A stretch of DNA of 40,965 bases from Thermodesulfobacteriota bacterium (GCA_034660535.1 JAYEJK010000148.1:1-40965); one strand, 5' to 3'; counted from the stretch's first letter, positions 20,299-39,859 are shown. Program-made: numbers and translations. Notes: generated by a model from the sequence alone, not told the origin.

Positions 20299-20312
20299 AG
20301 ATAAGGAGATAA

Positions 20313-20493: not shown

Positions 20494-20594
20494 TAAGTCT
20501 GAAGCCTTGGTCCAGCCTGCGCGTGACAATAGCTTTGACAGGAAACCGGCTACCAAGAAATCCGGGCCAAGATCCCAGGATTAAGGGGCTAGCA

Positions 20595-24837: not shown

Positions 24838-24879
24838 GAGTCCGAGAGTAACTCCGTTTGTTAAAGGTTTGTTTACAAA

Positions 24880-24971
24880 TGGAGGGGGCAAGGGGAATCG
24901 AACCTCCTCCCGGTTTTGCAGACCGGGCCAACGGGTTTGAAGCCCGCGGGGCGCCCAGCACCATTGCCCCC
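24880..24971 (-). tRNA. selC: tRNA-Sec (anticodon UCA)
   Basis: The reverse complement is GGGGGCAATGGTGCTGGGCGCCCCGCGGGCTTCAAACCCGTTGGCCCGGTCTGCAAAACCGGGAGGAGGTTCGATTCCCCTTGCCCCCTCCA. It has an 8-bp acceptor stem (GGGGGCAA/TTGCCCCC), a CUUCAAA anticodon loop, a long variable arm, a GGTTCGATTCC T-arm and a CCA end. It is 92 nt long. Confidence 0.9.
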
Positions 24972-25378: not shown

Positions 25379-26467
25379 ATGGCACAATTGAAAAATTTTT
25401 TTTCGACACGCTGGGGAATTATAAGTGTAGGAGCCTTTATCGGAGTGCTTGCTTCGCTTTTACAGAAATTAGGCAATCCTGGGAATATGGGTATTTGCGT
25501 TGCCTGCTTTGAAAGAGATATTGCAGGGGCAATCGGAATTCATAGGGCGGCTGTGGTCCAGTATATGCGGCCCGAAATCATCGGCTTTGTTCTGGGTTCA
25601 CTAATTGCCGCATATCTTTTCAAGGAATTTCGGTCCCGGACAGGCTCAGCTACTATTGTTCGATTCATGCTGGGAGTTTTTGCCATGATCGGGGCACTGG
25701 TCTTCCTGGGATGCCCGTGGCGAGCTTTACTACGCTTTTCAGCCGGTGATGGAAATGCCGTTTTGGGATTGCTCGGACTGGTCGGCGGCATCTGGATAGG
25801 CACTCTTTTTCTTAAAAGCGGGTATAACCTGGGGCGTGCCGAGAAGACATACACCTCGGTGGGATGGTTATTACCTTTGACCATGATCGGTTTTTTAATG
25901 TTGATGCTCATCTTTCCGCAAATTGATGGAGAGGCCAAAAGCGGAATCCTGTTTTACAGTGTAAAAGGTCCCGGCGTGATGCATGCACCTCTGATTATTT
26001 CCCTGCTGGCCGGCCTTGCTATAGGGTTTGCTGCGCAGAGAAGCCGTTTTTGTACTATGGGTGCTTTTCGGGATTTAATTCTGTTTCGACAGGCCCACCT
26101 TTTCTCAGGGCTTATTGCCCTGGTGGTTTTCGCTTTTATAACAAACCTGATAGTGGAGCAGTTTCATCCAGGCTTTGTCAAACAGCCGGTGGCCCATACC
26201 ATGCATGTCTGGAATTTCGGCGGGATGGTTCTGGCCGGCCTTGCATTTGCCCTGGCAGGAGGATGTCCGGGACGGCAGCTTTTTCTGGCTGGTGAAGGCG
26301 ATGGAGATGCAGCGGTTTTCGTGCTGGGTATGATAGTCGGAGCAGGTTTTGCTCACAATTTCGGCCTGGCGAGTTCTCCAAAAGGTGTTGGCCCTCACGG
26401 TATTGCCGCTGTGATCATCGGGCTTTCGGTCTGTCTGTTTATCGGTTTTACCATGAGAAAAAAATAA
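25379..26467 (+). CDS. yedE: YedE-family putative selenium/sulfur-compound transporter
   Basis: 362 aa, polytopic. LGNPGNMGICVACFERD and the second-half repeat ...RSRFCTMGAFRD... are the paired Cys motifs typical of YedE/YeeE. Confidence 0.85.
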   Translation: MAQLKNFFSTRWGIISVGAFIGVLASLLQKLGNPGNMGICVACFERDIAGAIGIHRAAVVQYMRPEIIGFVLGSLIAAYLFKEFRSRTGSATIVRFMLGVFAMIGALVFLGCPWRALLRFSAGDGNAVLGLLGLVGGIWIGTLFLKSGYNLGRAEKTYTSVGWLLPLTMIGFLMLMLIFPQIDGEAKSGILFYSVKGPGVMHAPLIISLLAGLAIGFAAQRSRFCTMGAFRDLILFRQAHLFSGLIALVVFAFITNLIVEQFHPGFVKQPVAHTMHVWNFGGMVLAGLAFALAGGCPGRQLFLAGEGDGDAAVFVLGMIVGAGFAHNFGLASSPKGVGPHGIAAVIIGLSVCLFIGFTMRKK

Positions 26468-26642: not shown

Positions 26643-26861
26643 ATGAGTATAATAGTCGATGCAGGAGGGCTTTCCTGTCCACAACCGGTCTTGATGACGC
26701 TAAATAAGATCAAAGAGATACAAAAAGGGGAAATTATAGTAAGGGTGGATACGGACACTTCAAAGGAGAATGTGAGCCGTGCGGCCGAGAGCCGGGGGTG
26801 GGATGTGGCTGATATTCAAAAGGATGAGACAGGATACCGGCTTATTATCAAAAAGGAGTAG
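26643..26861 (+). CDS. TusA/SirA-family sulfur(selenium)-carrier protein
   Basis: 72 aa. ...DAGGLSCPQPVLMTLNKI... carries the CPxP active-site motif. The size and fold pattern match TusA. Confidence 0.85.
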   Translation: MSIIVDAGGLSCPQPVLMTLNKIKEIQKGEIIVRVDTDTSKENVSRAAESRGWDVADIQKDETGYRLIIKKE

Positions 26862-26867: not shown

Positions 26868-27419
26868 TTGTCTTTTTTAGGCTTTTTAAAACAGAAACGA
26901 TCTGAAACCGGGGATGATCAAAACGTAGATCGCGGGATTCTGGTGTTCGAGAACACCAGTGAGGTAATCAGGGCTGAAAGTGTCCTTAAATCAGAAGGAT
27001 GGAAGATAAAAGTTGTGGGCCCTCCGCCTGAAATCCGAAGCGGCTGTGATCTGGTTATTGAGATTCCCCTCATAGAAGAACTGAACATCCTGCGGACTCT
27101 TGAGAAAGCCGGGGCTTCGCCGCTGGAAACAGTGCCTGTCAGCAGTCCATTGCTGCAACCCGTGGATCTCTTCCAGAATAAAGATTTCGGAAAATACCTG
27201 ATGATCCGGGCGGCCAATATGAAATTGACCATTGATAAGGAGACATTGAATATCGTAAATGTCTCCGGTGGCGGCTGCCCGGACGTTCCTTATCTGGCTC
27301 AGGAGATGGTGGGTAAAACAATGGCTGAAGCGCCGGACCCACGGGAAATCGGTCATACCCTGTGTGGCTATGCGCTCCAACTGGCATATGAGGAGATGTC
27401 GCGCCGATGTTCGCTGTAG
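26868..27419 (+). CDS. DUF3343-like (putative Se/S carrier) domain protein with a C-terminal extension
   Basis: The N-terminal part, ...GILVFENTSEVIRAESVLKSEGWKIKVVGPPPEIRSGCDLVIE..., fits the DUF3343 pattern. An additional roughly 90 aa (...VSGGGCPDVPYLAQE...CGYALQ...) belongs to no recognised family. The start is TTG. Confidence 0.6.
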   Translation: MSFLGFLKQKRSETGDDQNVDRGILVFENTSEVIRAESVLKSEGWKIKVVGPPPEIRSGCDLVIEIPLIEELNILRTLEKAGASPLETVPVSSPLLQPVDLFQNKDFGKYLMIRAANMKLTIDKETLNIVNVSGGGCPDVPYLAQEMVGKTMAEAPDPREIGHTLCGYALQLAYEEMSRRCSL

Positions 27420-28270
27420 CGGGGACCGTACCGGTTCAAGATTTCCCCCTGGTGGCAGGAGAAGTTTTTCTGGAAGATGATAATATCCGTATCCGGGAAA
27501 TGCGGGTCCCGGTAAATCGAGGGACTCCGGCTTTGATGGCCGCGGCCGTCAAAGCATGCGAAGCGCTGGATCAAGGCGCTCCCTTTGGATATCTTGTGGG
27601 AGACATCGGACTGGGAGATGGGAGCCGCAGGCTGTATGAATACATGACCGGACATCTTGATAAATTCGATTTCCAATCAAAATACGGAACAGGTCTGCAA
27701 GCAATTACTTTTCATTATCTTCAGCCTGATGTGGACTGGCATAACAGAGTCCTGTCTACCGTGAAGGAAATGGAAAAGGCGCCCATATTAATCGCTGACG
27801 CCGGTTTTATGTATGCTGCCAAGATGAGCGGGAAGGCAGCGGAATATGATCTTTTTACACCGGATGTCGGTGAACTGGCTTTTCTGGCGGATGAAGAGGC
27901 CCCGCATCCATTTTACACAAGGGGTTTTATTTTACACGAAGAAGACCGGATACCTGAGCTGATTGCCCGGACATATAAATATAAAAATGGAGCGCGTTGT
28001 CTCCTGGTAAAAGGGAAACAGGATTATGTGGCAGACCGGCATGGAATTCAGGCGACGATTGACAGTCCAATGGAAGAGGCCATGGAAGCCATGGGCGGCA
28101 CAGGAGATACCTTGACCGGTATTGTAACGGCTCTGATCGGAACAGGCATGGAGGTTATGAAGGCTGCTACTATTGCTGCAAGAGTAAATCGACTGGCCGG
28201 GTATTATGCAAAGCCGACACCCGCCACCCAGGTGATGGAGATTATTAAGCATATACCGACCGCTTTGTAA
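27407..28270 (+). CDS. YjeF_C / ribokinase-superfamily (NAD(P)HX-dehydratase-like) protein
   Basis: ...AMGGTGDTLTGIVTALIG... matches the GGxGDxLxG anion-hole motif of the YjeF C-terminal/carbohydrate kinase fold. It overlaps the previous gene by 13 nt. Its TAA stop (28268..28270) lies inside the inserted family-3 element. Confidence 0.65.
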   Translation: MFAVAGTVPVQDFPLVAGEVFLEDDNIRIREMRVPVNRGTPALMAAAVKACEALDQGAPFGYLVGDIGLGDGSRRLYEYMTGHLDKFDFQSKYGTGLQAITFHYLQPDVDWHNRVLSTVKEMEKAPILIADAGFMYAAKMSGKAAEYDLFTPDVGELAFLADEEAPHPFYTRGFILHEEDRIPELIARTYKYKNGARCLLVKGKQDYVADRHGIQATIDSPMEEAMEAMGGTGDTLTGIVTALIGTGMEVMKAATIAARVNRLAGYYAKPTPATQVMEIIKHIPTAL

Positions 28271-28419
28271 ATATTCGGCTTGATGCCGGAAAATAGCTAA
28301 AATTACCAAACTGTAAATGTTTGGCAACGCTTCACAGGGAGGTGAGCAGGCTGATCAGCTATACTTGGGTATGCTGGGCAGCCTGATCGCCTTCCTGTGG
28401 AGTGTTGCCGAATATTTAC
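28267..28419. mobile_element. MITE-like element, family 3, 153 bp, copy 1
   Basis: It has 13-nt terminal inverted repeats, GTAAATATTCGGC and GCCGAATATTTAC. It is flanked by a perfect 8-bp direct repeat ACCGCTTT (28259..28266 and 28420..28427). The interior is self-complementary. Confidence 0.85.
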
Positions 28420-28448
28420 ACCGCTTTTGCTAATGAAAAAGGAGAATC

Positions 28449-28679
28449 GTGGATAAAAAAGTCATAAAGAAAGATCAACAAATCCGTCCGGAAATGACCG
28501 TACTGGATGTTGTTTCCGGATACAAAAAAACCGAGCAAGTGTTTAAACAGTATGATAAACAGGCAGGCGTTTGTATTTGCTGCCAGGCGCTTTTTGAACC
28601 CTTAAGAAAAGTTGCGGTAAGATATGGTTTAAACCTGGAAAAATTTCTGGCTGACCTGGAGGCCGCAGCCGCTCAATAG
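28449..28679 (+). CDS. DUF1858-type small redox-disulfide protein (hybrid-cluster-protein-associated family)
   Basis: ...MTVLDVVSGYKKTEQVFKQYDKQAGVCICCQALFEPLRKVAVRYGLNLEKFLADLE fits the DUF1858 pattern with a Cys cluster. The GTG start is preceded by AGGAGAA. Confidence 0.65.
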   Translation: MDKKVIKKDQQIRPEMTVLDVVSGYKKTEQVFKQYDKQAGVCICCQALFEPLRKVAVRYGLNLEKFLADLEAAAAQ

Positions 28680-28956
28680 TAAATGTTCACGCACCGCATC
28701 CGGAGTCTCGCAGGCTTGCTTAACCTGCACGCGATTAGGGCAACCAGTATAAGGTGGGCTATAAATATTCGGCAGCACTCCACAGGAAGGCGATCAGGCT
28801 GCCCAGCATACCAAAGTATAGCTGATCAGCCTGCTCACCTCCCTGTGAAGCGCTGCCAAACATTTACAATTTGGTGGTTCTAGCTATTTTCCGGCATCAA
28901 GCCGAATATTTACGGTGGGCTATAGCTGATTGCCCTGATCACGCACAGGTACGATT
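28679..28956. repeat. Degenerate family-4 palindromic repeat, interrupted by family-3 element copy 2
   Basis: GTAAATGTTCACGCACCGC...ACCTGCACGCGATTAGGGCAACCAGTATA is mirrored, after removal of 28761..28921, by TATAGCTGATTGCCCTGATCACGCACAGGTACGATT. The core resembles the family-4 core ACCTGCACGCGATCAG... Confidence 0.45.
28761..28913. mobile_element. MITE-like element, family 3, 153 bp, copy 2 (inverted relative to copy 1)
   Basis: Its reverse complement matches 28267..28419 with about 8 mismatches by eye. It is flanked by a perfect 8-bp direct repeat GGTGGGCT (28753..28760 and 28914..28921). Confidence 0.85.
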
Positions 28957-29389
28957 TTTTTGTGATCAGCTTCACTTCAGGTCCCATCCATTCTTCAATC
29001 GAGAGACTTTGATTTTCAGTAAAAAATTTTTCCCGGCTTTTCGTTATTAAATAACTCGACAGTCCAAAGTTTTCATATTTAAGTTTGACGACAACTTCAA
29101 ATTTTCAGAGTTGACGATACTGAGATGAATAAATGCCGGATTTAACCCCATTGGCCCCCCAATAGCAATTACAGTTGACCATCACCGAGTCAATCGGTCT
29201 AAGTCGGTAAAACCCATAATACAATCGGAAATAGCGTTTGACAATAGGCCTTCGTCTGATATATTTTTGTTTATCCCTGTTTGTATGGATGAAAGACCCG
29301 TAAGTCAGGTCAATGGCAAACATAACCATGAACCGATAGCAGAAGGCCATTGCGAGACAACCTATGGGGCCAAGTGTGAGTGGATACAA

Positions 29390-29605
29390 ATGATGGAAGA
29401 CCGATGGCTCTCCGCAGATGATATTGTGGCTTATCTCGGCATCAAGCGGGATACCGTTTATAGATGGATAAGTGAAAGAAATATGCCTGGGCACAAGATC
29501 GGTCGCTTGTGGAAGTTTCGTAAAGAAGAGGTCGACGAGTGGATGCGAAGCGGAGGTGGCCGGAGTGATGCCAACGATAAGCCGGTCGACGAACCGCAAT
29601 CCTGA
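29390..29605 (+). CDS. Excisionase-family / MerR-like helix-turn-helix DNA-binding protein
   Basis: MMEDRWLSADDIVAYLGIKRDTVYRWISERNMPGHKIGRLWKFRKEEVDEWM is the canonical excisionase-type HTH pattern (L...e.A.yLg.s..t.y.w......P..k.G..w.f...e.d.W.). Confidence 0.8.
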   Translation: MMEDRWLSADDIVAYLGIKRDTVYRWISERNMPGHKIGRLWKFRKEEVDEWMRSGGGRSDANDKPVDEPQS

Positions 29606-30265
29606 GGACTTTGAGGATTTTGTTCTGGCAGCAGCCCCCAATAACGAACCCGTCGGAAAACTAATGCGTGAACTTCGGGAACCGTGCCACGGCAGAGCCG
29701 TTCTTATCCTCGATGCGCGCTCTCTGCGTGGGTCTCCCTGGATCATTCACGGCGCTGCCGAGCGCGGATTCACGATTCACGATGCAAGAGCTACCGGAGT
29801 CGAACTGCCTGCGGACACTACCTCCTTCGCCAAGGCGCTCGGATTTTCCCAACGTTGGCGCTCGACAACAACGGTGCAGGATCTGCTCACAAATTGACCG
29901 GAGCGCGAACGGAATCTACGGACATTGCCTGGAAGGATTGCGCTGACTTCATCGGCTCTGAACCCGATTGGGTGTTCTGGCATCACTGGCCGGATCATCG
30001 CCTGCACCATCATGATGAGGCGGGCAAGGGCCTGTCGACGCTGACCAAGGAGATACGGGAACAGCGGACGCTGGATTGATGAAAATGGAGACACGGGTCA
30101 TTGGGTGCCGGCCATCGATCTTTCCCTGAATACGTGGCACGGACAGCATCAGTTTGTACTGGGACGTCGAAAATGGAAGAGCGCGGGCGGATATCCAACG
30201 CTGACGCAGGGAGGATTAAGCGTGCTCGAAGTTGCAGTGCCTTGGATAGAACTATCGAAATGAGG
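29590..30265 (+). pseudogene. Remnant of an unidentified gene spread over three reading frames
   Basis: Protein-like translation continues from frame to frame. The first piece is ...NPEDFEDFVLAAAPNNEPVGKLMRELREPCHGRAVLILDARSL...TTVQDLL. The second is ...KLTGARTESTDIAWKDCADFIGSEPDWVFWHHWPDH...LTKEIREQRT. The third is ...RWIDENGDTGHWVPAIDLSLNTWHGQHQFVLGRRKWKSAGGYPTLTQGGLSVLEVAVPWIELSK*. The region looks more GC-rich than its surroundings by eye. No family was recognised. Confidence 0.4.
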
Positions 30266-30272
30266 CTATTAC

Positions 30273-31521
30273 ATGGCAAAAGACCTTAATAAAAAGCCTT
30301 ATGACGAGGCAACGCTCACCAAACTGGAAATCTTCGAACAATATCTGATCGCGTGGCTACCTGTGTTCATACATACACCCCATACAAGCAAAGCCATGAT
30401 CTGCGATTTTTGTGCCGGTTCTGGATATGATTCTATTGGCATAGATGGAAGTCCTATTCGCATCGTCAAGCGAATAGACAATTATCGCGACCAGATTTTC
30501 CAGAATGATATTCATATCGATATTCTTCTAAATGATGTAAAAATCAAGAAATACCGTGAACTGGAGAACGCTGTCGCCGAATCGTTTCAGGAGGAATCCT
30601 GGCATGGCAAGGTTACTCTTTCTTGTCACAACGAAGATTTCCAGCAGCTCTTCCGGCAACAATACGAGCGCCTAAAACAACAGCCAAACCTCCTTTTTAT
30701 CGACCAGTCCGGCGTCAGGCAGGTCACGAATGAAATCTTCCAGATGCTGATCGGCCTGAATAAAACGGACTTTCTGTTTTTCATTTCGTCATCAGCGATA
30801 AAGCGGTTTGCCGGAACAGCCGAGTTTAGTACCTTAGTGGTAATTTTCTTGTTTTTTCTGGCAGGAAATCAAAAAGGTGAAATATTTTTAAATAGTTACA
30901 CGCTGCTGTTAAGGTACTTATCCAGGACCTTTAAAAATTCCAGTTTATCTGGGTTAGGAGTCTTTTTCCTGACATTGATCCCGATAAGATTTCGGCTGCC
31001 AAGCATGAAGATATTCATCGAATCATGCTGGACTACTACACGCTGAAAATCCCAGAGACAATCTCACAAGGTTGTATCCCTTTTCGCTTAAAAAAGGGTC
31101 AAACATTTACGGTTTAATTTTTGGTTCAAAGCATCCCCTCGGTGTTGAGAAGTTTCTCGATCTGGTATGGGTCCAAAACGCCATCAACGGGGAAGCTAAT
31201 TTCGACATCAATGACGACGTTGAAAAAGGGCAACCGACCCTATTCGATTTGCTACCCGACTTCGAACGTCCTAAAACCAAACGAGAATTGTTTGAAGACT
31301 ATCTGGAAGAGTTCATTCACAATCACGGCCAGGTCACAAACCGTGAAGTATACGACTTTACATTGATTCATGGCCACCCAAAGTCTCATGCGGGCGAATG
31401 CATAATACGCTTGAAAAGTGAAGGTAAAGTAGAGTATAGCGGGCGAATCGGGTTCAGCTATAAATCCTGCGGCAAGAAGAATTCCGTACTAAAGACAATA
31501 AAATGGATAACTAATGGCTAA
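30273..31521 (+). pseudogene. tcmP: Three-Cys-motif partner protein TcmP, disrupted by a family-2 element insertion and one frameshift
   Basis: It lies immediately upstream of, and overlaps, a DUF5131/Gp37-Gp68 gene, which is the usual TcmP pairing. The frame is intact from 30273 to 30829. Removing 30830..30957 rejoins ...GTAEF|RSLFPDIDPDKISAAKHEDIHRIMLDYYTLKIPETISQ... in frame. A further 1-nt shift near 31068..31075 leads into ...YPFSLKKGSNIYGLIFGSKHPLGVEKFLD... (the frame of ORF 31072..31521). Confidence 0.7.
30830..30957. mobile_element. Family-2 small mobile element, copy B (124 bp plus a 4-bp TTAG duplication)
   Basis: TTAG at 30826..30829 is repeated at 30954..30957. The sequence is collinear with 40006..40187, apart from two 27-nt inserts in the latter. 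There are no long terminal inverted repeats. Confidence 0.8.
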
Positions 31522-32887
31522 TTCCAAAATAGAATGGACAGATTCAACATGGAATCCAGTGACGGGTTGCAGAAAAACAAGTGCAGGATGCCTGAACTGC
31601 TACGCGGAACGTATGTCCAAGCGGTTGAAGGCAATGGGGCAGGCAAACTATGCTAATGGCTTTGAGGTAACGATGCACCCGCACGTCATTGAGCATCCGC
31701 TGAAATGGAAAAAGGCACAGGTCATATTTGTGAACTCTATGAGCGACTTGTTTCACGAGGATGTTCCGCTGGAGTTTATCCGGCAAATCTTTGATGTGAT
31801 GACCAGGGCAGACTGGCACACATTTCAGATTTTGACCAAACGGTCCAAGCGTCTGGAAGAATTGGCTCCGCTGCTGGAATGGCCCAAAAACGTTTGGATG
31901 GGTGTGACGGTCGAGAATGCCAGTTGTGCCTACCGTATCGAGCACCTTTGCACTGTCCCTGCAGCAGTGCGGTTTTTATCAATGGAGCCGCTGTTGTCAG
32001 CGGTGGATGACATGAACCTTGACGGCATCGACTGGGTTATCGTTGGTGGCGAATCAGGCCCGGGGGCACGCCTAATACAAAAACAATGGGTATATGGCAT
32101 CCGCAAGCAATGTCGAGAAGCAAAGGTACCTTTCTTTTTCAAGCAGTGGGGAGGTATTAATAAGAAAAAGGCAGGCCGGGAACTTGACAGCCGGATTTAT
32201 GACGAGATGCCGGAACAACCTTGGAAATATTGTCATCCGCCGATGAAAAAGACTGAATGGCTGGCCAGAGAGGTGGCCATGGTCGTAAATGCAGGCAAGG
32301 CCTGGGACTGTGAAACGGTTGACTTTTCAAATCCCAACCGTCCGCCAACGTGTTTGGAGGTCGATTTTCCGATCCTGCCTATCAACCAGATTGCGGCTAT
32401 CGAAGGCAATGCGGGCAAGCCCATTTACCAGATGTCCAAGTGGTGGGCGCGGAGATGCAGCAGCGTATTCCGTGCCATGCTCATAACCGCTGCCATGAAA
32501 GCCCCGGAGGACCCGTCCGAGGCAGCCAAGCAGGTATGGGATGCCTATTACGGCAACCATCAGAAAAAGGGCGCGTTCAAGCATCTCAAGGTTGCCGACA
32601 TCTTCATGGGCGGCAGCACCACAGTCGTGGAAGGCTCGCGTCTCGGCATGCAGATGTACGGCAACGATCTGAACCCCGTGGCCTGGTTCGTGGTCAAGAA
32701 CGAGATGGCCAAAGTGGAGAATGCCGAGGTCAAGGCGCAGATCATGCCTTTCTACGCCTGCGATTGCCCGTGCGGCCACAAGGGCAAATGGACAAAGGTC
32801 GGTACCGGGGAGGTGATGGGTGATGATTTCGAGCCTACCTCACTTTGCCCCGAGGAGCATAAAGAGTATAGCTATGAAGGCCCCTAA
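31514..32887 (+). CDS. DUF5131 (phage Gp37/Gp68 family, three-Cys motif) protein, continuing in frame into an N-terminal DUF1156-type methyltransferase fragment
   Basis: Residues 1 to about 235 read ...IEWTDSTWNPVTGCRKTSAGCLNCYAERM... and ...VPFFFKQWGG...GRELDSRIYDEMP, which is the Gp37/Gp68 pattern. From about residue 244 (nt 32243) the sequence reads ...CLEVDFPILPINQIAAIEGNAGKPIYQMSKWWARR... and ...VADIFMGGSTTVVEGSRLGMQMYGNDLNPVAWFV. That is the DUF1156 N-terminal motif plus SAM-binding motif I. No stop codon separates the two parts. Confidence 0.7.
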   Translation: MANSKIEWTDSTWNPVTGCRKTSAGCLNCYAERMSKRLKAMGQANYANGFEVTMHPHVIEHPLKWKKAQVIFVNSMSDLFHEDVPLEFIRQIFDVMTRADWHTFQILTKRSKRLEELAPLLEWPKNVWMGVTVENASCAYRIEHLCTVPAAVRFLSMEPLLSAVDDMNLDGIDWVIVGGESGPGARLIQKQWVYGIRKQCREAKVPFFFKQWGGINKKKAGRELDSRIYDEMPEQPWKYCHPPMKKTEWLAREVAMVVNAGKAWDCETVDFSNPNRPPTCLEVDFPILPINQIAAIEGNAGKPIYQMSKWWARRCSSVFRAMLITAAMKAPEDPSEAAKQVWDAYYGNHQKKGAFKHLKVADIFMGGSTTVVEGSRLGMQMYGNDLNPVAWFVVKNEMAKVENAEVKAQIMPFYACDCPCGHKGKWTKVGTGEVMGDDFEPTSLCPEEHKEYSYEGP

Positions 32888-33345
32888 TCATCTATGTCTT
32901 TTGGGCCAAGCACGGTCCCTGCCAGGTCACGGGCTGCGGCCATCGCACGCCGATCATGACCAGCCCCGCGTCATGGTGGTAAAAACCATTTCCGTGAAGT
33001 ATTGGGTTCACCAATGCCCTCACTGCGGTGGCAAATACGACCTGGAAGAACGAGAAGCACGCATGGCCCCTGGTGGTAATCTCGCTTTCACGTTTCCACC
33101 ACAGTGAGGACGCGCCGTGGGTAGCGGTTTTGGAGTCGTTGTTTGACGCGGGATTCTACCTTGCGGCCACCTACCTGATTCGCAGCGACGAGACCAAAGG
33201 CACGGGTGAATTCGGCTCCGAGAAAATCGAATACGACATCATCCACGTCTGCCGTAAGCGCATGGAGGACCCCGAGCCCATAAGCTGGAACACAAGATGC
33301 GCCGCCAGTGTCCGCTGCCTGCAGGAGATGCTGGAACATCACCGA
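32243..33345 (+). pseudogene. DUF1156-type (anti-phage-associated) DNA methyltransferase, heavily degraded
   Basis: Collinear fragments lie in different frames. The N-terminal part is in the 31514 frame. It is followed by PLIIYVFWAKHGPCQVTGCGHRTPIMTSP (shifted at about 32880), then VVKTISVKYWVHQCPHCGGKYDLEE (shifted again). The C-terminal piece is ...FHHSEDAPWVAVLESLFDAGFYLAATYLIRSDE...DIIHVCRKR... (33028 frame). The total of about 1.1 kb compares with about 2.7-3 kb expected for this family. Confidence 0.6.
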
Positions 33346-33372
33346 CGGACCAATTCAGAGCGAGGAAATAAA

Positions 33373-36048
33373 ATGAGCAAGACAGACTCAATCGTGAATG
33401 CCCAAGAATTACCCTGCGGCGCTCGTTTTTTTCGTTGCGCCCTTCAAGTGAATCCATTTGATTATATTGTACGGCATAGCAAAGAGACGGTGTTCAACAA
33501 CGAATCGGATTATAATGCGGCGATAGTGAAGGCGTGTAAGAGAATCGGTATTGAGGTGATCGCTATTACCGATCACCAGCGTTGCAGCACCGGACAGTCA
33601 CTGGCCGAAGCGGCCCGCGCTGAAGGAATTATTGTTTTTATCGGAGCAGAATTGGAAACCAAAGAGGGTGTTCATATGTTGCTTCTTTTTGAACCGGATG
33701 CCTCTTGGGAGCGCTGCAACGGTATATTGGGCGATTGCGGAATTCATGACCAGGCGAATCCGCCTTCGGCAATCAAATATGATGTACATGAGTTACTGCG
33801 TGAATCTGTCCGATGGAACTGTATCTGTGTTGCCGCCCATGTAGCGAGTGAAAAAGGCTTGTTGCAGGTACTGGATAATCAGGCCCGGGCGGCGGCATGG
33901 AAATCCGAGTATCTTCCGGCCTGCTCTCTGCCCGGCCCGGCGAAAGATGCACCACCGAACCTGCGGCCAATTTTGCTCAACAAAAACTCTGACTATCTTC
34001 GTGATCGACCTGTAGCTGTAATCAACGCTCAGGACGTGTCAAGTCCGGATGATTTTGAAAAAGCTGGCTCGTCTTGTTGGATAAAGATGTCAGATGTTAC
34101 GATTGAGGGATTACGACAGGCGTTTCTTGATCCTGCTTCCAGGATACGTATGGCCAGTGATCCACCTCCGGAGGAGCACACCGAGTTCATTGCCATATCA
34201 TGGCAAGGTGGTTTTCTCGATTGTGCGGCAATTCATTTAAATGAAAACCTGAATGTCCTAATCGGCGGACGAGGAACAGGGAAATCAACTGTCGTTGAAA
34301 GTATCCGTTATGTCCTTGGCATGCAACCACTCGGTGAGGAAGCCCTTAAGGCTCATAGTGGCATTGTTCGCCAGGTACTTCGTAGCGGCACAAAGATTTC
34401 AATGCGGGTCCGCTCTTACCACCCGGATAAGCGTTATTACCTGATCGAACGAACTATTCCGAATCCACCTGTTGTCAAAGACGAGACCGGCAATGTTCTC
34501 AATCTGACTCCCACGGATGTCGTCCCCCAGACCGAAATATACGGACAACATGAGATCTCGGAACTTACTAAAAGCCGCGAAAAACTCACACACCTTCTCG
34601 ACCGTTTCGTAGAATGCGATACCGATATCTTAAAACGAAAAAGTGGCGTTCGCCGGCAGTTGGAGCGTTCACGCTCGCGTTTGCTTGAAACCCACAGAGA
34701 GCTTCTGCAAATTGAGGATCGTCTCGCCACTCTGCCGGCTCTTGAGGAGACATTGCGTCGGTTCCAGGATGCCGGGCTTGAGGAGAAACTTAAGGAGCAG
34801 AGCCTTCTTGTTCGGGAAGAAAGGGTGCTTAAGACTTCAGGGGAACGGCTAAGCCCCTTCAAGGAACTGCTGAATCAATTGGAGAGTGATCTTCCAATTG
34901 ATCGTGCTTTTATCTCTCCAAAAGCGCTGGAGAATCTTCCCGGAAAGGAAATTTTGGGTGATACGAACGACATCCTGGAACAGTTCACAAAGGACATGAA
35001 TAGTATCGTCGCTGAAATAAAGAAGGCTATCGGAAACGCAGAGACTGGTTTGGGTGAAATACGGAGCCGCTGGGGGGAACGAAAAAAGGCGGTTATGGCG
35101 GCGTATGAAGCCATCTTGCTTGAACTGCAGAAATCGAAGATTGATGGTGAGGAATTCATCCGCTTAAGGCGACAAATGGAGGAACTCCGTCCGCTAAAAG
35201 AAAGGCAAACCGCGTTACAGCGCAATTTGAAAGAGTATGAAACTGAACGGCGGAATCTTCTCTCTGAGTGGGAAGACGTAAAGGCCGAAGAATTCCGGCA
35301 TCTGGAACGTGCGGCAAAAAAAGTAAACAGGAAACTTGAAGGACGTGTTTTGGTCGATGTTGCTGCAGGCGGAAATAGGGAACCGCTGATTCAGCTTCTG
35401 CGTGATCAAATTGGAGGACGCTTGTCCGAGACGATTGAGTCCTTGACGCAAAGCACAGACTTCTCTCTTCCGATATTCACTGAAGCATGTAGAGAAGGTC
35501 GGGAGGCTTTGTCCCTGCAGTTCAACATCCCTACCAGCCAATCAGAACGTATTGCTCAGGCAAAGCCCAATATCATAATGCAAATCGAGGAATTGGAGCT
35601 GCCGCCTACCACAACCATTAAACTAAATGTCGCTGCTGACGATCAACCACCAGTGTGGCAGACGCTTGAAGACCTTTCCACAGGACAAAAAGCAACTGCG
35701 GTTCTCCTTCTCCTGCTGCTTGAGTCGAGCGCACCTCTGGTTGTGGACCAGCCGGAAGATGATCTCGATAATCGCTTTATTTCCGACGGAATAGTGCCAA
35801 AAATGCGAGAAGAAAAACGCCGACGTCAGTTCATCTTCGCCACCCATAACGCCAATATCCCGGTGCTGGGAGACGCCGAGTTGATAGTCGGGCTAACAGC
35901 GTTCGGTGAGGCGGGACAAGGCAAAGCGAAGCTTTCTCAGGAGCATATGGGGTCTATCGACACACGCCTCGTCCGTGAACTTGTTGAAGAAGTCCTGGAA
36001 GGTGGAAAGGACGCTTTTGAGATGCGACGCTTAAAGTACGGATTTTGA
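33373..36048 (+). CDS. PHP-domain phosphoesterase fused to an SMC/Rad50/RecN-like ABC ATPase with a long coiled-coil insert
   Basis: The ATG at 33373 is preceded by GAGGAAAT. The PHP-like N-terminus reads ...FRCALQVNPFDY...IEVIAITDHQ...VFIGAELETKEGVHMLLLF...VAAHV... Walker A is LIGGRGTGKST, followed by about 350 aa rich in heptad-like E/K/L/R. The signature-like motif is LSTGQK, Walker B is PLVVDQPEDDLD and the H-loop is FIFATHN. The ORF-track start at 33028 adds methyltransferase-remnant codons. Confidence 0.8.
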   Translation: MSKTDSIVNAQELPCGARFFRCALQVNPFDYIVRHSKETVFNNESDYNAAIVKACKRIGIEVIAITDHQRCSTGQSLAEAARAEGIIVFIGAELETKEGVHMLLLFEPDASWERCNGILGDCGIHDQANPPSAIKYDVHELLRESVRWNCICVAAHVASEKGLLQVLDNQARAAAWKSEYLPACSLPGPAKDAPPNLRPILLNKNSDYLRDRPVAVINAQDVSSPDDFEKAGSSCWIKMSDVTIEGLRQAFLDPASRIRMASDPPPEEHTEFIAISWQGGFLDCAAIHLNENLNVLIGGRGTGKSTVVESIRYVLGMQPLGEEALKAHSGIVRQVLRSGTKISMRVRSYHPDKRYYLIERTIPNPPVVKDETGNVLNLTPTDVVPQTEIYGQHEISELTKSREKLTHLLDRFVECDTDILKRKSGVRRQLERSRSRLLETHRELLQIEDRLATLPALEETLRRFQDAGLEEKLKEQSLLVREERVLKTSGERLSPFKELLNQLESDLPIDRAFISPKALENLPGKEILGDTNDILEQFTKDMNSIVAEIKKAIGNAETGLGEIRSRWGERKKAVMAAYEAILLELQKSKIDGEEFIRLRRQMEELRPLKERQTALQRNLKEYETERRNLLSEWEDVKAEEFRHLERAAKKVNRKLEGRVLVDVAAGGNREPLIQLLRDQIGGRLSETIESLTQSTDFSLPIFTEACREGREALSLQFNIPTSQSERIAQAKPNIIMQIEELELPPTTTIKLNVAADDQPPVWQTLEDLSTGQKATAVLLLLLLESSAPLVVDQPEDDLDNRFISDGIVPKMREEKRRRQFIFATHNANIPVLGDAELIVGLTAFGEAGQGKAKLSQEHMGSIDTRLVRELVEEVLEGGKDAFEMRRLKYGF

Positions 36049-36059
36049 GGGGTAATTAA

Positions 36060-37277
36060 ATGACAAAGACAGAGCTGTTAGAGCTAATCAAGAACGGTGA
36101 AAACTCTGGAATTGAGTTCAAGCGCGACACTATAGACAACCGGGCCATGGCCAAAGAGCTAGTTGCATTTGCTAACTTACGAGGCGGCCGTGTGCTTTTG
36201 GGAGTGGATGATGATGGCAGCGTGGTTGGGATAACCAGGGATCGGTTAGAAGAATGGATTATGACTACCTGTCGAGATAAAATTCGCCCTGAGTTAATCC
36301 CGTATTATGAAATAATCCGCGATGTGGAGCCAGGGAAAGATGTAGCTATTGTTCAAGTTGACCGCGGATGGGCGGTCCATCATGTTTGGCACAATAACCA
36401 TCGGACTTACTATATTCGTGTTGGAACACAGAGCCGCGAGGCCAGTGCCGAGGAACTTGAGCGGTTGTTTCAGCAGCGTGGGGCCTTCCGGCTGGAGGTA
36501 CGCGGGGTATCGGGCTCATCCATGGACAATTTTGACTATCGTCGCTTAAACGATTATTTTCAGCGTATCCGCTCTCAAGAAACGCCAGGCACGGATGATA
36601 CGAATGCCTGGCAAAATCTGCTTGTAAACACCGAATTCCTGGTTGATGAAGACGACACGACTCCGGCGACAGTTGCGGGCTTACTTCTGTTTTGCGCTAA
36701 TCCGAATCGTTTCTTGCCCCAAGCCGGAATAGATGCCGTTGCTTATCCTGGAAAGGAAAAGGATTATGCCGCTAAAGAACGGTTAGCTATTCGCGGTCCT
36801 ATGACGGCCCTGTTTGGGAGCGAAGGACTCGTTGAAAATGGACTTGTGGAACAAGCGGTGGAATTCACAAGGCGAAATACCGAAGTGTCGGCCGGTTTTG
36901 CTGATGGTGCGAGGCGCGAGGAACGATGGTTGTATCCGGAAGAAGCGATTAGGGAAGCCATTGTCAACGCCCTTGTTCATCGGGACTACCTTTTGTCGGG
37001 AACGACTGTGGAATTGTCTATATATGAAGATCGATTAGAGGTGGTTTCTCCCGGACGTCTTCCTAACGGCATCACTCCACAGCGTATGATAACGGGGTGC
37101 CGTTCAGCCCGGAACCAATTGCTCAAAGATGTCATGAGAGACTACGGTTATCTTGAGCACATGGGCATGGGTGTGCCTCGCAAAATCGTTAAAGAAATGC
37201 AAAAACATAACGGCACTTCGCCCGATTTGGTCGAGGATGAGGAGCGCTTTTTGGTCAGACTGTGGAAGAAGAAATGA
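36060..37277 (+). CDS. AlbA_2 (Schlafen-type) DNA-binding domain protein with a C-terminal HATPase_c_4-like domain (RecG-like putative regulator)
   Basis: ...LIKNGENSGIEFKRD...ELVAFANLRGGRVLLGVDDDGSVVGI... is the AlbA_2 signature. The C-terminal part reads ...EAIREAIVNALVHRDY...IEIYEDRLEVVSPGRLPNG... It lies 11 nt after the ATPase gene, with a GAGGGG SD. Confidence 0.8.
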   Translation: MTKTELLELIKNGENSGIEFKRDTIDNRAMAKELVAFANLRGGRVLLGVDDDGSVVGITRDRLEEWIMTTCRDKIRPELIPYYEIIRDVEPGKDVAIVQVDRGWAVHHVWHNNHRTYYIRVGTQSREASAEELERLFQQRGAFRLEVRGVSGSSMDNFDYRRLNDYFQRIRSQETPGTDDTNAWQNLLVNTEFLVDEDDTTPATVAGLLLFCANPNRFLPQAGIDAVAYPGKEKDYAAKERLAIRGPMTALFGSEGLVENGLVEQAVEFTRRNTEVSAGFADGARREERWLYPEEAIREAIVNALVHRDYLLSGTTVELSIYEDRLEVVSPGRLPNGITPQRMITGCRSARNQLLKDVMRDYGYLEHMGMGVPRKIVKEMQKHNGTSPDLVEDEERFLVRLWKKK

Positions 37278-37870
37278 AAGAAATAGACGTCAGGGGTTTG
37301 GCCTGCCCGGCTCCGGTATTGCGGACAAAAAACGCCATAGAAGAGAACAACTTAAATAGTATAAAAGTCCTGGTGGATAATGAAGCGTCCATGCAAAACG
37401 TCGACCGTTTTCTTAAATCCCGGGGTTTTAAAGTCTCATTACAGGTGAAGGATGGGGATTTTCATGTTACAGGGAGGCATGAAGGTGGAACTGAGACTGA
37501 AGTCGCGGCGGCTGAAAAACCGGATGATGAAAAGAAAAAAACCATGGTTATGGTTGTAACGGACTGCATGGGTCACGGGGATGATGAGCTTGGCTCAAAG
37601 CTTATGGTGAGTTTTTTAAAAACCATAAAGGAAATGGGTGATGAACTGTGGCGGCTGGTTTTTGTGAATAACGGCGTTAAACTTACTATCGAAAATTCCG
37701 AGGTGCTGCCGATTTTGAAAGAATATGAAAAAGACGGTCTGCATATCCTGGTCTGCGGGACATGCCTGACTCATTTTGATTTGCTGGACAAAAAACAGGT
37801 GGGCGAAACCACAAATATGCTCGATATTGTTACAGCCATGCAACTGGCCGATAAGGTGATTAGTATTTGA
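37274..37870 (+). CDS. yedF: Selenium metabolism protein YedF (TusA/SirA-like N-domain plus DsrE-like C-domain)
   Basis: MKEIDVRGLACPAPVLRTKNAI... carries the CPxP motif. The C-terminal half, ...MVMVVTDCMGHGDDELG...LVCGTCLTHFDL..., is the DsrE-like fold. The ATG overlaps the upstream stop as ATGA (37274..37277). Confidence 0.8.
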   Translation: MKEIDVRGLACPAPVLRTKNAIEENNLNSIKVLVDNEASMQNVDRFLKSRGFKVSLQVKDGDFHVTGRHEGGTETEVAAAEKPDDEKKKTMVMVVTDCMGHGDDELGSKLMVSFLKTIKEMGDELWRLVFVNNGVKLTIENSEVLPILKEYEKDGLHILVCGTCLTHFDLLDKKQVGETTNMLDIVTAMQLADKVISI

Positions 37871-37917
37871 CAAAGGAAATGAATATGGTTTACCTATTTG
37901 TTCTGAGGAAATAAATC

Positions 37918-38973
37918 ATGGCAGATGAAAAAATAAAAGCACTTCGTCTCACGGAAACAGTAACAGGTTCGGGGTGAGCGTCGAAACTGCCTCCAGGGGA
38001 CCTGGACAGGGCGCTATGCGGGATGGAATTTCCCACTGATTCGAATCTGATCGTAGGTCTTGATCGTGCGGATGACGCCGGTGTTTACAAGATCACGGAT
38101 GATATAGCCATTATTCAGACTGTGGATTTTTTTACGCCCATTGTGGATGATCCATACCAGTTCGGGCAGATCGCTGCTGCAAATGCCTTAAGCGATGTAT
38201 ATGCCATGGGTGGTGTGCCGAAAACCGCAATGAATCTGGTGGCCTTTCCGCTAAAGCAGATGGATATGTCCATTCTCCGTCAAATTCTTCAGGGCGGAAT
38301 GGATAAGATGAAAGAGGCGGGCGTGGTGCTGGTGGGCGGGCACAGTGTGGAGGACAATGAACTGAAATACGGTTTGTCTGTCATGGGTTATATTCACCCG
38401 GATCGAATTCTTTTAAAGAAAAACCTTAAACTCGGAGATCGACTGATTTTGACAAAACCCCTGGGAACAGGAATCGTGAATACAGCAATTAAGGGAGGGC
38501 TCGCTTCCGAAAAAGTCGTTGAGTTTGTCACAGGTCTTATGGCGACCCTGAACAGGGATGCGGCAGATGTAATGAATGATTACCCTGTCAGCGCATGCAC
38601 GGATATTACCGGTTTCGGCCTGATCGGTCATTTGGCGGAGATGGTGTTTGATTCCAGGTATGGTATAGAAATTTGGACTGAAAAAATACCGATTATCCCC
38701 GAAGCCATAGAGTATGCCGGTATGGGTTTGGTGCCCGCGGGAGCTTACAAAAACCGTGAATTTCGAGAATCAATGGTCGATTTTGCCCCTTCCGTGGATA
38801 TCCTGCTTCAGGATGTTCTTTTTGATCCCCAAACATCCGGAGGGCTATTGATCTGTGTGGAAAAAGAAAACGCTGATGATATGGTGAAAAGTTTAAAGAA
38901 AAAGGGAGTAGATAATGCGGCTGTTATCGGAGAAGTGTTGTCCGGGCCAAAGGGAAGGATTGTTGTAATTTAA
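37918..38973 (+). CDS. selD: Selenide, water dikinase SelD, selenocysteine-containing form (in-frame UGA at 37975..37977)
   Basis: ATG at 37918: MADEKIKALRLTETVTGSG-U-ASKLPPGDLDRALCGMEFP..., in frame with ORF 38023..38973 (an offset of 105 nt). The UGA sits at the position of the catalytic Cys/Sec in the SelD N-terminal Gly-rich loop (E. coli ...HGAGCGCK...). The remainder shows the AIR-synthase-like SelD fold (...DDPYQFGQIAAANALSDVYAMGG...). Confidence 0.88.
37989..38012 (+). promoter_or_regulatory. Candidate SECIS hairpin for the selD UGA
   Basis: GCC-UCCAGG-GGA-CCUGGA-(CAG)-GGC. The stem begins 11 nt after the UGA, the canonical bacterial SECIS spacing, and the apical loop is G-rich. Confidence 0.5.
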
Positions 38974-39155: not shown

Positions 39156-39338
39156 TTACAGCGATTCCTGGCGCATTTCATCTTCAACAGGTTGCATTAT
39201 AATTCGACCGTCTTTATAAATAACAAGCGGTGTACGGGTTTCCCTTGCTGTTTTACGGGCTTTTTGAGCCGCCCGCAGCAACGCCGCTTCAACCCTGGCA
39301 AGATCGGGGTCTTGAATTGTCTTTTTTGTTGTGGTCAT
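39156..39338 (-). CDS. Small protein, putative cognate antitoxin/partner of the zeta-like ATPase
   Basis: 60 aa: MTTTKKTIQDPDLARVEAALLRAAQKARKTARETRTPLVIYKDGRIIMQPV... Its start overlaps the upstream gene stop by 4 nt (ATGA-type coupling). Confidence 0.55.
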   Translation of the reverse strand: MTTTKKTIQDPDLARVEAALLRAAQKARKTARETRTPLVIYKDGRIIMQPVEDEMRQESL

Positions 39339-39859
39339 CGATTTTTTCCCTCATCAATGAGTTGTGGGCTTTCGCCTGAATTATTATACAGCACCCAGGC
39401 ATCGACTAAATTTTTATAGATATTATGAAAGTTATTCCATCCTTTGTCAAACCGGCGATGGATAACCGGCTCATCCACATTGTGACCGCCCTGGGCAACA
39501 CGAATCCGCACCCGTTCCACAGCAATTTCCACGTCCGGCAGACTGAGAAAAATTAGTTTGGTCCGATATCCGATATCCTGCCACTGCCGGATATATCGGG
39601 CGTAAAGGCGGCCGCTCAGCGTGGTTTCAAAGGCAAAACTTTCTCTGCGTCCAACATATCCCCTGATTTCTTCGATCATCAGACGACCAGCCCTGAATGC
39701 TGCTTGTTCAGGGGTGAATGGCGACAGCCCGGCCGCGATAAGATCAGCATTGACAAAGGAGGGACAGGCCGCTTCCCTGACCAGAAATTCTCTGGCGAAT
39801 GTGGTCTTGCCCGCACCATTTGGCCCGGCAATGATAACAATTTTTTGCTCTTCACTCAT
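39335..39859 (-). CDS. Zeta-toxin-family P-loop kinase-like protein
   Basis: MSEEQKIVIIAGPNGAGKTTFAREF... is the Walker A motif, and ...FAFETTLSG... follows. The size of about 174 aa and overall pattern fit the zeta toxin/AAA_33-like kinase fold. Confidence 0.7.
   Translation of the reverse strand: MSEEQKIVIIAGPNGAGKTTFAREFLVREAACPSFVNADLIAAGLSPFTPEQAAFRAGRLMIEEIRGYVGRRESFAFETTLSGRLYARYIRQWQDIGYRTKLIFLSLPDVEIAVERVRIRVAQGGHNVDEPVIHRRFDKGWNNFHNIYKNLVDAWVLYNNSGESPQLIDEGKNR

Follow-up and report, generated by a model that had tools for sequence, protein, structure and literature searches.

A stretch of 40,965 nucleotides (nt) from a Thermodesulfobacteriota bacterium (GCA_034660535.1, JAYEJK010000148.1:1-40965), analysed here over its full length and called the window, carries a selenium-utilisation gene cluster that is interrupted between a DUF1858-like gene and yedF. 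We interpret the interrupting block, at about positions 28684–37273, as a composite, horizontally acquired and eroding defence island of three nested modules, and we put the probability of this reading at about 0.8. The modules are a decayed backbone resembling the Type-3 BR systems (DUF499-centred and related to bacteriophage exclusion, BREX), a TcmP–DUF5131 pair lying within that backbone, and an intact TrlF–Schlafen pair at the 3′ end. Open reading frames (ORFs) were listed and protein families scanned with Pfam, PADLOC and NCBIfam over 24–41 kb of the window, and these scans bore out every gene named in a preliminary description of the same DNA. The island and the two host genes that adjoin it are laid out below; loci compared with the window carry L numbers, and scores are given against the cutoffs of the respective profiles.

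28449–28679, plus strand: DUF1858-like small gene, immediate left neighbour of the island (Pfam DUF1858 E = 6.8e-4, a match below the cutoff)
28684–29389: left border region, made up of 78 unassigned nt, copy B of a miniature inverted-repeat transposable element (MITE-1) and a leader of 44% GC
28762–28913: MITE-1 copy B, 152 nt, with the 9-bp duplication GGTGGGCTA
29238–29265: promoter-like site, TTGACA-16-TATATT, TG-extended, 11/12 sigma70-like in a consensus scan
29390–29605, plus strand: MAD1-like helix-turn-helix (HTH) gene of the excisionase type, intact (HTH_17 57.8 bits; NF047737 MAD1 76.1 bits, cutoff 80)
29600–29696, plus strand: DUF499 ATPase remnant, 97 nt (blastn to L169 positions 2592–2688, 90.7%)
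29686–30263, plus strand: standalone PglZ pseudogene in three frames, 86–91% identical to the 329-amino-acid (aa) PglZ of L169
30273–31521, plus strand: tcmP pseudogene (PDC-M30A; PDLC04568 224 and 147 bits; TIGR04474 95 bits, cutoff 53)
31514–32205, plus strand: DUF5131 gene (PDC-M30B), frame intact, product 93% identical to that of L169 (PF07505 336 bits; PDLC04569 382 bits)
32206–33345, plus strand: DUF1156-type N6-adenine methyltransferase pseudogene, 1.14 kb in three frames (DUF1156 24.3 bits, cutoff 24; HmaB and DUF1156_MTase matches)
33346–36048, plus strand: trlF, encoding a PHP domain and an SMC/Rad50-like ATPase, intact, ATG at 33373, 891 aa; the coordinates include a conserved ribosome-binding-site leader of about 25 nt
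36060–37277, plus strand: Schlafen gene, AlbA_2 plus HATPase_c_4, intact, 405 aa (PF04326 72 bits, cutoff 25.3; PF13749 77 bits)
37274–37870, plus strand: yedF (TusA plus DsrE-like), right flank; ATG at 37274 placed from the L001 alignment and Pfam

The island interrupts a cluster that is continuous in a close relative

Relatives of the kinase-like gene in the left flank were scanned with one genome per species, yielding 80 loci. The closest of these, L001 (JAYEGR010000116), has flanking proteins 92–96% identical to those of the window and the uninterrupted order yedE–tusA–DUF3343–kinase–DUF1858–yedF, with a 35-nt A-rich spacer separating the DUF1858 stop codon from the yedF ATG. Nucleotide collinearity between the window and L001 breaks at 28683/28684 and restarts at about 37270–37274, at the yedF ATG. 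By this comparison the inserted block measures 8.6 kb, and the host spacer has been replaced without duplication. The preliminary description had proposed that a horizontally acquired, decaying island splits the selenium cluster and had set beforehand, as its own test, whether relatives with an uninterrupted cluster exist; L001 is such a relative, and the proposal stands. The borders it gave, 28922–37277, are shifted on the left, where the start lies 239 nt inside the block, just after a MITE; the end, 37277, is the stop of the AlbA_2 (Schlafen) gene. It had also correctly named yedE, the tusA-like gene, DUF3343 and the kinase gene as left neighbours while overlooking the DUF1858-like gene. 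This gene, found with tblastn in the majority of the 80 relatives and 96% identical in L001, is conserved as part of the selenium cluster and forms the island's actual left flank.

That these genes normally travel together was likewise upheld: yedF or selD lies downstream in 39 of 66 informative relatives. None of the 80 relatives has a close copy of an island gene, and L043 has one distant AlbA_2-like match (32% identity, opposite strand, beyond selD). The GC-rich parts of the island that had been noted by eye were confirmed in windowed profiles, with 57.4% at 29501–30000 and 57.8% at 32501–33000 against a window mean of 47.8%. By feature, GC is 56.5% in both 29600–30263 and 32216–33345, 42–44% in tcmP and about 50% in the TrlF and AlbA_2 genes. 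These data bear on the possibility that the island is ancestral here and was lost from L001 and the other relatives by precise deletion. Short repeats have clearly been the sites of many deletions in the region, and L001 is the only very close relative available, yet in 19 relatives (64–95% identity) yedF or selD lies at most 300 nt from the end of the kinase or DUF1858 gene and none of them retains an island remnant. Together with the mosaic GC of 42–57%, unlike that of the flanks, and with the unrelated genomic contexts in which the nearest relatives of each module sit, this makes ancestral presence very improbable.

The backbone is an eroded Type-3 BR system

Several loci show what the backbone would have looked like when whole. 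L165/L167 (GCA_964474505.1) and L168 have the order HTH_17 (69 aa)–DUF499 (900 aa)–PglZ (332 aa)–SIR2–HerA–628-aa protein–222-aa protein–DUF1156 methyltransferase (about 1091 aa)–174-aa protein–Snf2 helicase. L169 has an intact DUF499–PglZ–TcmP–DUF5131–methyltransferase order at 84–92% nucleotide identity to the window, L092 has TcmP–DUF5131–methyltransferase, and the viral-database (IMG/VR) contig L183 has the same BR core, in which the methyltransferase directly follows PglZ and GmrSD comes after the helicase. The DUF499, PglZ and methyltransferase pieces of the window are 80–97% identical to L169 at the amino acid level. On these matches we assign the backbone to the Type-3 BR, Hma-like, systems, in a heavily eroded state. 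This DUF499-centred class is described in sections 28–33 of PMC12839542 (Rakesh & Krishnan, NAR 2026), and that paper equates the wider DUF499-centred group with the PADLOC system ‘Hma’; the earlier view of the cassette as a poorly characterised kind does not hold for a backbone that matches this class. The paper also reports an iSTAND component in 82% of taxa with such systems. The 628-aa STAND-like and 174-aa proteins of the relatives are iSTAND candidates, and neither is found in the window.

Each backbone gene downstream of the HTH gene is broken. The HTH product is 72% identical to that of L165, which itself scores 86 bits on MAD1. The HTH frame now ends at a stop codon within DUF499 sequence that begins at codon 678; some 2 kb of DUF499 has therefore been lost. 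Only residues 678–706 or so of the 900 remain, the N-terminal 2 kb and a C-terminal part being deleted; the corresponding L169 protein exceeds the Pfam DUF499 cutoff (26.7 bits against 23). The preliminary description had reported an unidentified gene broken over three frames, which is real and proves to be the PglZ pseudogene fused to the 97-nt DUF499 remnant. With the joined PglZ frames as query, 893 proteins of about 330 aa were retrieved, many with PF08665, and the PADLOC PglZ profile scores 26.7 bits on L165; a PDB sequence search with PglZ returned nothing. PglZ lacks its residues 1–89: an 837-nt deletion, with the microhomology ACGGCAG at its join, brought residue 90 up against DUF499. 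Farther along, PglZ has lost 1 nt at 29856 and another 150 nt internally near 30063.

The methyltransferase had been described as a set of out-of-frame fragments, as we also find. Residues 1–240, 240–269 and 270–303 lie in three frames as a result of a −1 shift at 32884 and a +2 shift at 32971, residues 304–783 or so are deleted, 784–870 are kept (33094–33345) and the rest is deleted. Against the methyltransferases of L165 and L169, the retained residues 1–303 and 784–870 match at 74–97% (tblastn). Because the piece at 33094–33345 runs on in frame, a 1006-aa ORF is read over TrlF. The methyltransferase C-terminus, the gene for the 174-aa protein and the Snf2 helicase are absent from the window. 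No helicase sequence was found anywhere in 28684–37273, and in L165, L168 and L183 the helicase gene comes after that of the methyltransferase; presumably it was lost from the island by deletion. Judged from what remains of its sequence, the BR-type system can now neither methylate nor restrict DNA. The earlier picture, in which the modification genes rot while the ATPases of the same system stay intact, fails on both counts: DUF499 as its own ATPase, PglZ as its putative effector, the methyltransferase and the helicase are all destroyed or deleted, and the intact pair is not part of that system.

In L183 a GmrSD type IV restriction gene (17651–19567) directly follows the helicase, an arrangement that parallels BrxU in BREX. 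The 3′ end of Type-3 BR operons would thus appear to take interchangeable accessories, with GmrSD in L183 and, by inference only, TrlF–Schlafen here.

The TcmP–DUF5131 pair occupies a swap slot

The MITE insertion and frameshift that had been reported in tcmP were both found. The gene is broken by a 124-nt element, MITE-2 (30830–30953, duplication TTAG), and by a 1-nt deletion at 31050, and its pieces are 90% and 81% identical to the TcmP of L169. The DUF5131 protein retains a radical-SAM-like three-cysteine motif (C19-x6-C26-x2-C29). A 52-nt deletion between 11-nt repeats, GATGCCGGAAC, took the last six DUF5131 codons together with the spacer and fused DUF5131 in frame to the start of the methyltransferase, giving a 457-aa ORF at 31514–32887. 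A literature search on DUF5131, TcmP and PDC-M30 found no mechanistic or functional study.

A metagenome scan with DUF5131 yielded 80 loci at 61–83% identity. In 79 of them no other BR-system gene was detected, L092 being the only exception, and because BR genes adjoin DUF5131 in that single locus of the 80 we regard TcmP–DUF5131 as an independent module. At the junction of PglZ and the methyltransferase, L183 has nothing, L165 and L168 have SIR2–HerA, and L169, L092 and the window have TcmP–DUF5131. To judge from these gene orders, the junction is a swap slot of the Type-3 BR family, and module swapping in this family would include its exchange between an empty state, SIR2–HerA and TcmP–DUF5131.

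TrlF and Schlafen form an independent, intact pair

The TrlF protein matches NF045780 with 517.9 bits (cutoff 350) over profile positions 2–944 of 944. Its homologues are about 891 aa long, and the best of them, P0001, is 91% identical over 100% coverage. It has a Walker A motif (GGRGTGKS), a signature motif (LSTGQK) and DQPEDD. The AlphaFold (AF2) model (pLDDT 78) contains a confident N-terminal α/β domain (residues 18–250) and an ABC head, with long helices that span about 240 residues and are predicted as a coiled coil. Foldseek matched the model to the heads of SMC, MukB, JetC, Rad50, RecN and RecF and to a PHP phosphoesterase (3e0f), while a PDB sequence search gave only weak SMC-head matches. 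Assignment to Ppl (NF042955) was considered and rejected, the score being 197 bits against a cutoff of 1000, with the PADLOC Ppl profile matching only the C-terminus (132.7 bits).

The second gene had been counted with TrlF as one of ‘two ATPases’. That holds for TrlF, but the AlbA_2 protein is not simply an ATPase: its predicted domains are a Schlafen-type nuclease domain, with the motif E-x4-E-x-K present as ENSGIEFK at residues 14–21, and a histidine-kinase-like ATPase fold. It is 90–95% identical to the partners of TrlF in L081 and L083. Bacterial Schlafens have been described as phage-activated tRNases (bioRxiv 10.1101/2025.07.24.666596), and section 35 of PMC12839542 links Schlafen–HisK–wHTH proteins to BREX and BR loci in at least 1017 taxa; that section makes no mention of a PHP-ATPase partner of Schlafen.

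Among close TrlF homologues (83–91% identity), the Schlafen gene comes next in 10 of 10 loci, which represent eight distinct contexts when L083/84 and L173/174 are counted once each. The pair follows an intact type I restriction–modification (RM) system in L082 and L176 and BrxL of BREX-1 in L083/84 and L175, stands beside HsdS fragments only in L173/174 (fragment 9541–9891) and L182 (536–1378), and stands beside an AAA_15 fragment in L081 and L181. More distant plasmid homologues (TrlF at 28–42% identity) place the pair between hsdS and hsdR in Citrobacter, between hsdR and hsdS on the E. coli IncC plasmid pNDM102337, between pglX and pglZ in Vibrio, and alone on the Pseudomonas plasmid pPsv48B; TrlF is also met without a Schlafen partner. 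Among the plasmid Schlafen matches listed, 29 of 40 adjoin an ORF annotated as TrlF or histidinol-phosphatase and six more lie in records with a known TrlF gene (35 of 40). Between contexts, homology extends only from about 25 nt upstream of the TrlF ATG to the Schlafen stop, and because it is confined to this leader and the two ORFs the pair behaves as a promoterless cassette. TrlF–Schlafen was not found in the intact Type-3 BR loci fetched (L165, L168, L169 and L183), and viral contigs yielded no close TrlF relative and one Type-3 BR locus, L183. These contexts mark the pair, as far as sequence comparison can, as a third module, independent of the BR system. A conserved pair tied to type I RM, BREX and BR operons in this way is a candidate for experiments.

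As a side observation, L173/L174 and L182 repeat the pattern of the window in which an accessory outlives its system, the pair being intact and the type I RM system cut down to an HsdS fragment.

The preliminary description had read the seven genes as one RM-like system, with the modification side decaying and the PHP–SMC and AlbA_2 ATPases kept as the working core. The genes are indeed co-oriented, tightly packed and jointly absent from L001, and parts of the set recur elsewhere, DUF499–PglZ–TcmP–DUF5131–methyltransferase in L169 and TcmP–DUF5131–methyltransferase in L092. Yet TrlF–AlbA_2 occurs alone or with unrelated systems and in none of the fetched intact Type-3 BR loci, and the trend here is that TrlF–Schlafen is no commoner with Type-3 BR than with other systems. 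L183 has a BR core that does without TcmP–DUF5131, as nearly all DUF5131 loci do without a detectable BR gene, and the most thoroughly deleted parts of the island are the system's own ATPase and helicase. A single system is thus improbable. What survives of the one-cassette description is the run from HTH to methyltransferase, which does belong to one RM-like system and whose order from DUF499 onwards is intact in L169; TcmP–DUF5131 and TrlF–AlbA_2 are separate modules. The expectation that the cassette genes co-occur elsewhere was borne out to the same extent, for the L169 gene set and not for a full combination with TrlF–Schlafen.

Since the pair survives beside dead systems here and in L173 and L182, it looks autonomous and not like a guard dependent on a partner. 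We tentatively extend this to a broader proposal, which we consider possible rather than probable: TrlF–Schlafen would be a distinct, autonomous two-gene anti-phage module consisting of a sensor or processor ATPase–PHP protein and an abortive Schlafen tRNase, a split analogue of PrrC/RloC. As a promoterless cassette with a leader of about 25 nt it would lodge within, or 3′ of, methylation-based defence operons of every kind (type I RM, BREX-1 or Type-3 BR), use the transcription of the operon and routinely outlive its host system; here it would in addition serve as a transcriptional and translational bridge to yedF–selD. Our search of the literature, whose coverage of possibly relevant work was incomplete, found no description of a mechanism for the pair.

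Island borders and mode of arrival

The left border region (28684–29389) matches no locus that was fetched. Its MITE-1 copy has a twin outside the island:

28267–28418: MITE-1 copy A, 152 nt, inverted and 95% complementary to 28762–28913, between the kinase-like and DUF1858-like genes

Copy A is absent from L001. Its terminus provides the TAA that now stops the kinase-like gene, which in L001 encodes seven residues more, and about 60 nt of the L001 spacer are missing near it (28253–28425). The claim of nested MITEs at the left border stands as far as the 152-nt element and its inverted twin are concerned; nesting itself is weakly supported, the alignment to the REP-like (repetitive extragenic palindrome-like) family of the window being weak and the canonical arms being absent there. 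No convincing operator-like repeats were found upstream of the HTH gene.

In line with the preliminary description, the Pfam, PADLOC and NCBIfam scans detected no integrase or recombinase domain in island ORFs on either strand. We found no direct repeats flanking the island and no tRNA gene inside it, the nearest being 3.9 and 24.9 kb away; a recombinase, direct repeats as attachment sites and a tRNA target, by which an integrase-mediated genomic island is recognised, are thus all absent. Rfam gave no match in the island, and no antisense ORF in it had a family match.

The right junction falls within AAATGA, a 6-nt microhomology in unique sequence, and the Schlafen stop overlaps the yedF ATG at 37274 as the ATGA that had been reported. 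Schlafen genes of relatives end in ...TGGAATAAATGA (L083) and the host has ...AAAAAATGAAAG; from comparison of these ends at AAATGA, the cassette was joined to the host by microhomology where it naturally ends, which gave rise to the overlap. The island probably arrived by illegitimate recombination followed by deletional trimming.

The joins also bear on whether the island is an artefact, with contigs joined at repeats in a metagenome-assembled genome. MITE copies do lie in the left border, and contigs of close relatives end near the locus. At the right, however, the junction is a codon-precise overlap in unique sequence, and the MITE inside tcmP belongs to a host family and so ties the island to its genome background. 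We give a chimera hardly any credence.

The MITE-2 family to which that element belongs also includes a 188-nt copy at 40000–40187 of the window and a copy upstream of yedE in L001 (94% identical). The window copy at 40000–40187 is abutted by a 148-aa HsdS (Methylase_S) fragment, which together with an AAA_33/zeta-toxin-like gene occupies 39335–40607 on the minus strand, downstream of selD; this region appears to be what is left of another RM or defence system that decayed, at the window edge.

Decay of the backbone and probable maintenance of the pair

Lesions were defined relative to L169 and L165. The tally comprises at least five deletions at microhomologies of 5–11 nt, four frameshifts and one host-native MITE, and about 4 kb is left of a backbone system estimated at 12 kb or more. 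Since the MITE-2 family occurs in L001 as well as in the window, the MITE lesion in tcmP arose in the present host lineage. Small inactivating lesions number five (the four frameshifts and the MITE) in the 3.96 kb of retained backbone plus TcmP–DUF5131, against none in the 3.89 kb of TrlF–Schlafen. At that rate about 4.9 would be expected in TrlF–Schlafen, and the probability of none is about 0.007; by the same test the open frames of the short DUF5131 and HTH genes are not significant. The ratio of nonsynonymous to synonymous substitution (dN/dS) against relatives is 0.09–0.12 for TrlF and 0.04–0.055 for Schlafen. With no lesion and strong purifying selection, TrlF–Schlafen is probably the surviving and only working defence function of the island. 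The locus thus offers a breakpoint-resolved example of a multi-gene methylation-based defence system dying while an attached accessory pair stays intact.

We propose the following course of events. The island would have entered the 35-nt spacer between DUF1858 and yedF after the split from the L001 lineage. Its original backbone would have been HTH–DUF499–standalone PglZ–DUF1156 methyltransferase–small protein–Snf2 helicase, a type of system that, according to PMC12839542, would methylate self DNA and restrict unmethylated invaders. TcmP–DUF5131 would have sat in the PglZ–methyltransferase junction, and a promoterless TrlF–Schlafen cassette would have become attached next to the methyltransferase remnant, which suggests for it a 3′ accessory position of the BR operon. 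By analogy with PrrC and RloC, the TrlF ATPase and PHP domain may sense or process foreign DNA, DNA ends or an anti-restriction activity, and TrlF may control the Schlafen tRNase, which would abort the infection. Because the cassette ends at a stop codon fused to the yedF ATG, yedF–selD is most likely expressed from the island, with transcription possibly starting at the promoter-like site (29238–29265) and translation coupled to that of the Schlafen gene. This overlap of stop and start implies that defence DNA has been wired into core metabolism, in that the selenium genes would depend on island expression.

Several points weigh against this reading. No locus was found that combines Type-3 BR, TcmP–DUF5131 and TrlF–Schlafen, and for that reason we infer, rather than observe, the original arrangement and the order in which the modules arrived. 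A consensus scan is the whole source of the promoter and read-through claims. The window may be metagenome-assembled sequence, and on its left side the island joins the host within repeats. In TrlF we see no clear counterpart of the first HxH motif that is canonical for PHP domains, which makes a nuclease activity of TrlF uncertain, and the literature search found no experimental paper on TrlF. Finally, comparison with L169 gives the pseudogene fragments a dN/dS of no more than 0.12–0.25; the decay is accordingly recent, and TrlF–Schlafen may simply be unhit so far.

This last point is also what favours regarding the whole island as dead cargo, in which the two intact genes have either not yet been hit or stay open only to avoid polarity on yedF–selD. 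The decay is recent relative to the divergence from L169, the DUF5131 and HTH genes are open as well despite their broken partners, and the ATGA coupling to yedF provides a reason for continued translation that has nothing to do with defence. By itself dN/dS does not decide whether the pair is maintained, and the density of lesions is more telling: 3.9 kb without a lesion lies beside a stretch with about 1.3 small lesions per kb. The pair moreover keeps its catalytic motifs and its low dN/dS, and independent loci (L173/174 and L182) also have it intact next to what remains of RM systems. We therefore consider dead cargo unlikely, although it should be kept in view, and retain the interpretation of an eroding island in which TrlF–Schlafen probably still functions.

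Relation to known systems

Each component of the island belongs to a described class, and the island is not a new kind of system. What the window contributes is a well-resolved series of decay steps, evidence that Type-3 BR operons swap modules and an unusual insertion within a selenium operon. With Type-3 BR it shares the DUF499 ATPase, the DUF1156 methyltransferase and the standalone PglZ of about 330 aa, each window copy being a remnant; these features speak for ancestry and not for function. The nuclease-less, BrxHII-like Snf2 helicase, found in the same operon order in L165, L168 and L183, is missing from the window together with the small downstream gene. The window differs further in its MAD1-like HTH head and in having TcmP–DUF5131 between PglZ and the methyltransferase. 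Two related classes were rejected. For MADS (mad1–mad8), the MAD1 score stays below its cutoff, weak mad3 and mad8 domain matches fall on the ATPase only, and there are no other mad genes. Canonical BREX (types 1–6) does not fit, since PglZ is short and standalone (NF033449 gives 23.7 bits on L165 against a cutoff of 250) and BrxA, BrxB and BrxL are absent.

The PADLOC-DB v2 candidate PDC-M30 has in common with the island an adjacent TcmP and DUF5131, in that order and with overlapping stop and start; in the window TcmP is broken, DUF5131 is fused to the methyltransferase remnant, and the pair is embedded as in the Hma-embedded candidates of PADLOC. The TrlF family and Ppl are alike in lying in defence islands and in architecture: a PHP domain at the N-terminus, then an ABC/SMC-type ATPase that carries a coiled-coil insert. 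Ppl is reportedly a single-gene defence protein, said to go back to work by Gao and colleagues in 2020, whereas TrlF is paired with a Schlafen-type gene here and on many plasmids.

PrrC lies inside the EcoprrI type Ic hsd operon, and PrrC and RloC are RM-linked anticodon nucleases. TrlF–Schlafen would resemble them in coupling an ABC/Rad50-like ATPase to a tRNA nuclease, in lying within or appended to type I RM, and in its proposed second-line abortive role; it differs in that the ATPase and nuclease are separate proteins, the nuclease has a Schlafen fold and a PHP domain is present. With the HisKinase–HTH class of pSlfn proteins (bioRxiv 10.1101/2025.07.24.666596) the Schlafen protein shares the AlbA_2/Schlafen N-terminal domain, the E-x4-E-x-K motif and the HATPase_c_4 C-terminal region, but the pSlfn proteins tested there act as single genes with fused sensors, whereas for the kind of Schlafen gene seen in the window TrlF came first in every locus examined, a partner not mentioned in the literature consulted. 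It shares with the Schlafen ‘backup effectors’ in section 35 of PMC12839542 a physical linkage to a BREX-related locus.

The selenium neighbourhood and other features of the window

The remaining genes of the selenium cluster are as follows.

25379–26467: yedE-like gene, left flank
26643–26861: tusA, left flank
26868–27419: Se_S_carrier/DUF3343 gene, left flank
27407–28270: Carb_kinase-like gene, left flank
37919–38973: selD, right of the island after yedF; start ATG at 37919, in-frame TGA

Directly upstream of yedE, and divergent from it, lie selB (GTP_EFTU and SelB wing domains) and tRNA-Sec (22915–24971, minus strand), so that the whole neighbourhood is a selenocysteine and selenium-utilisation locus. 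The selD gene is itself a selenoprotein gene: near 37966 its frame contains a TGA, within the motif GGTTCGGGGTGAGCG that L001 has in identical form, and because of this TGA its ORF is listed only from 38023. Relative to L001, an insertion of about 31 nt, ATGAATATGGTTTACCTATTTGTTCTGAGGA, lies at 37878–37910 between the yedF stop and the selD start.

In the more distant relatives L022, L056, L066 and L076, DUF1858 and yedF/selD are separated by three additional genes that are conserved (products of 278, 276 and about 464 aa); the last of them encodes a Metalloenzyme/PhosphMutase-type protein, and all three are probably further members of the selenium cluster. The idea that the slot between DUF1858 and yedF/selD is a general defence hotspot was rejected, as the distant relatives hold these three conserved genes there and the one scanned is of the non-defence metalloenzyme/phosphomutase type.

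Outside the cluster, a third MITE-like family is represented by two 188-nt elements, at 1003–1190 and 20310–20497, which are 100% reverse-complementary, 19 kb apart and each a 76% palindrome. REP-like palindromes with arms GTAATCGTTCACAGGCGCC occur in intergenic positions at 3564, 3609, 3724, 19744, 19767, 26474 and 26562, including the interval between yedE and tusA, and also in L040. Finally, the ORF at 1585–2232, which encodes a 215-aa protein, contains a 291-nt tandem duplication (1616–2197, 99% identical) that produces an exact 97-aa repeat.

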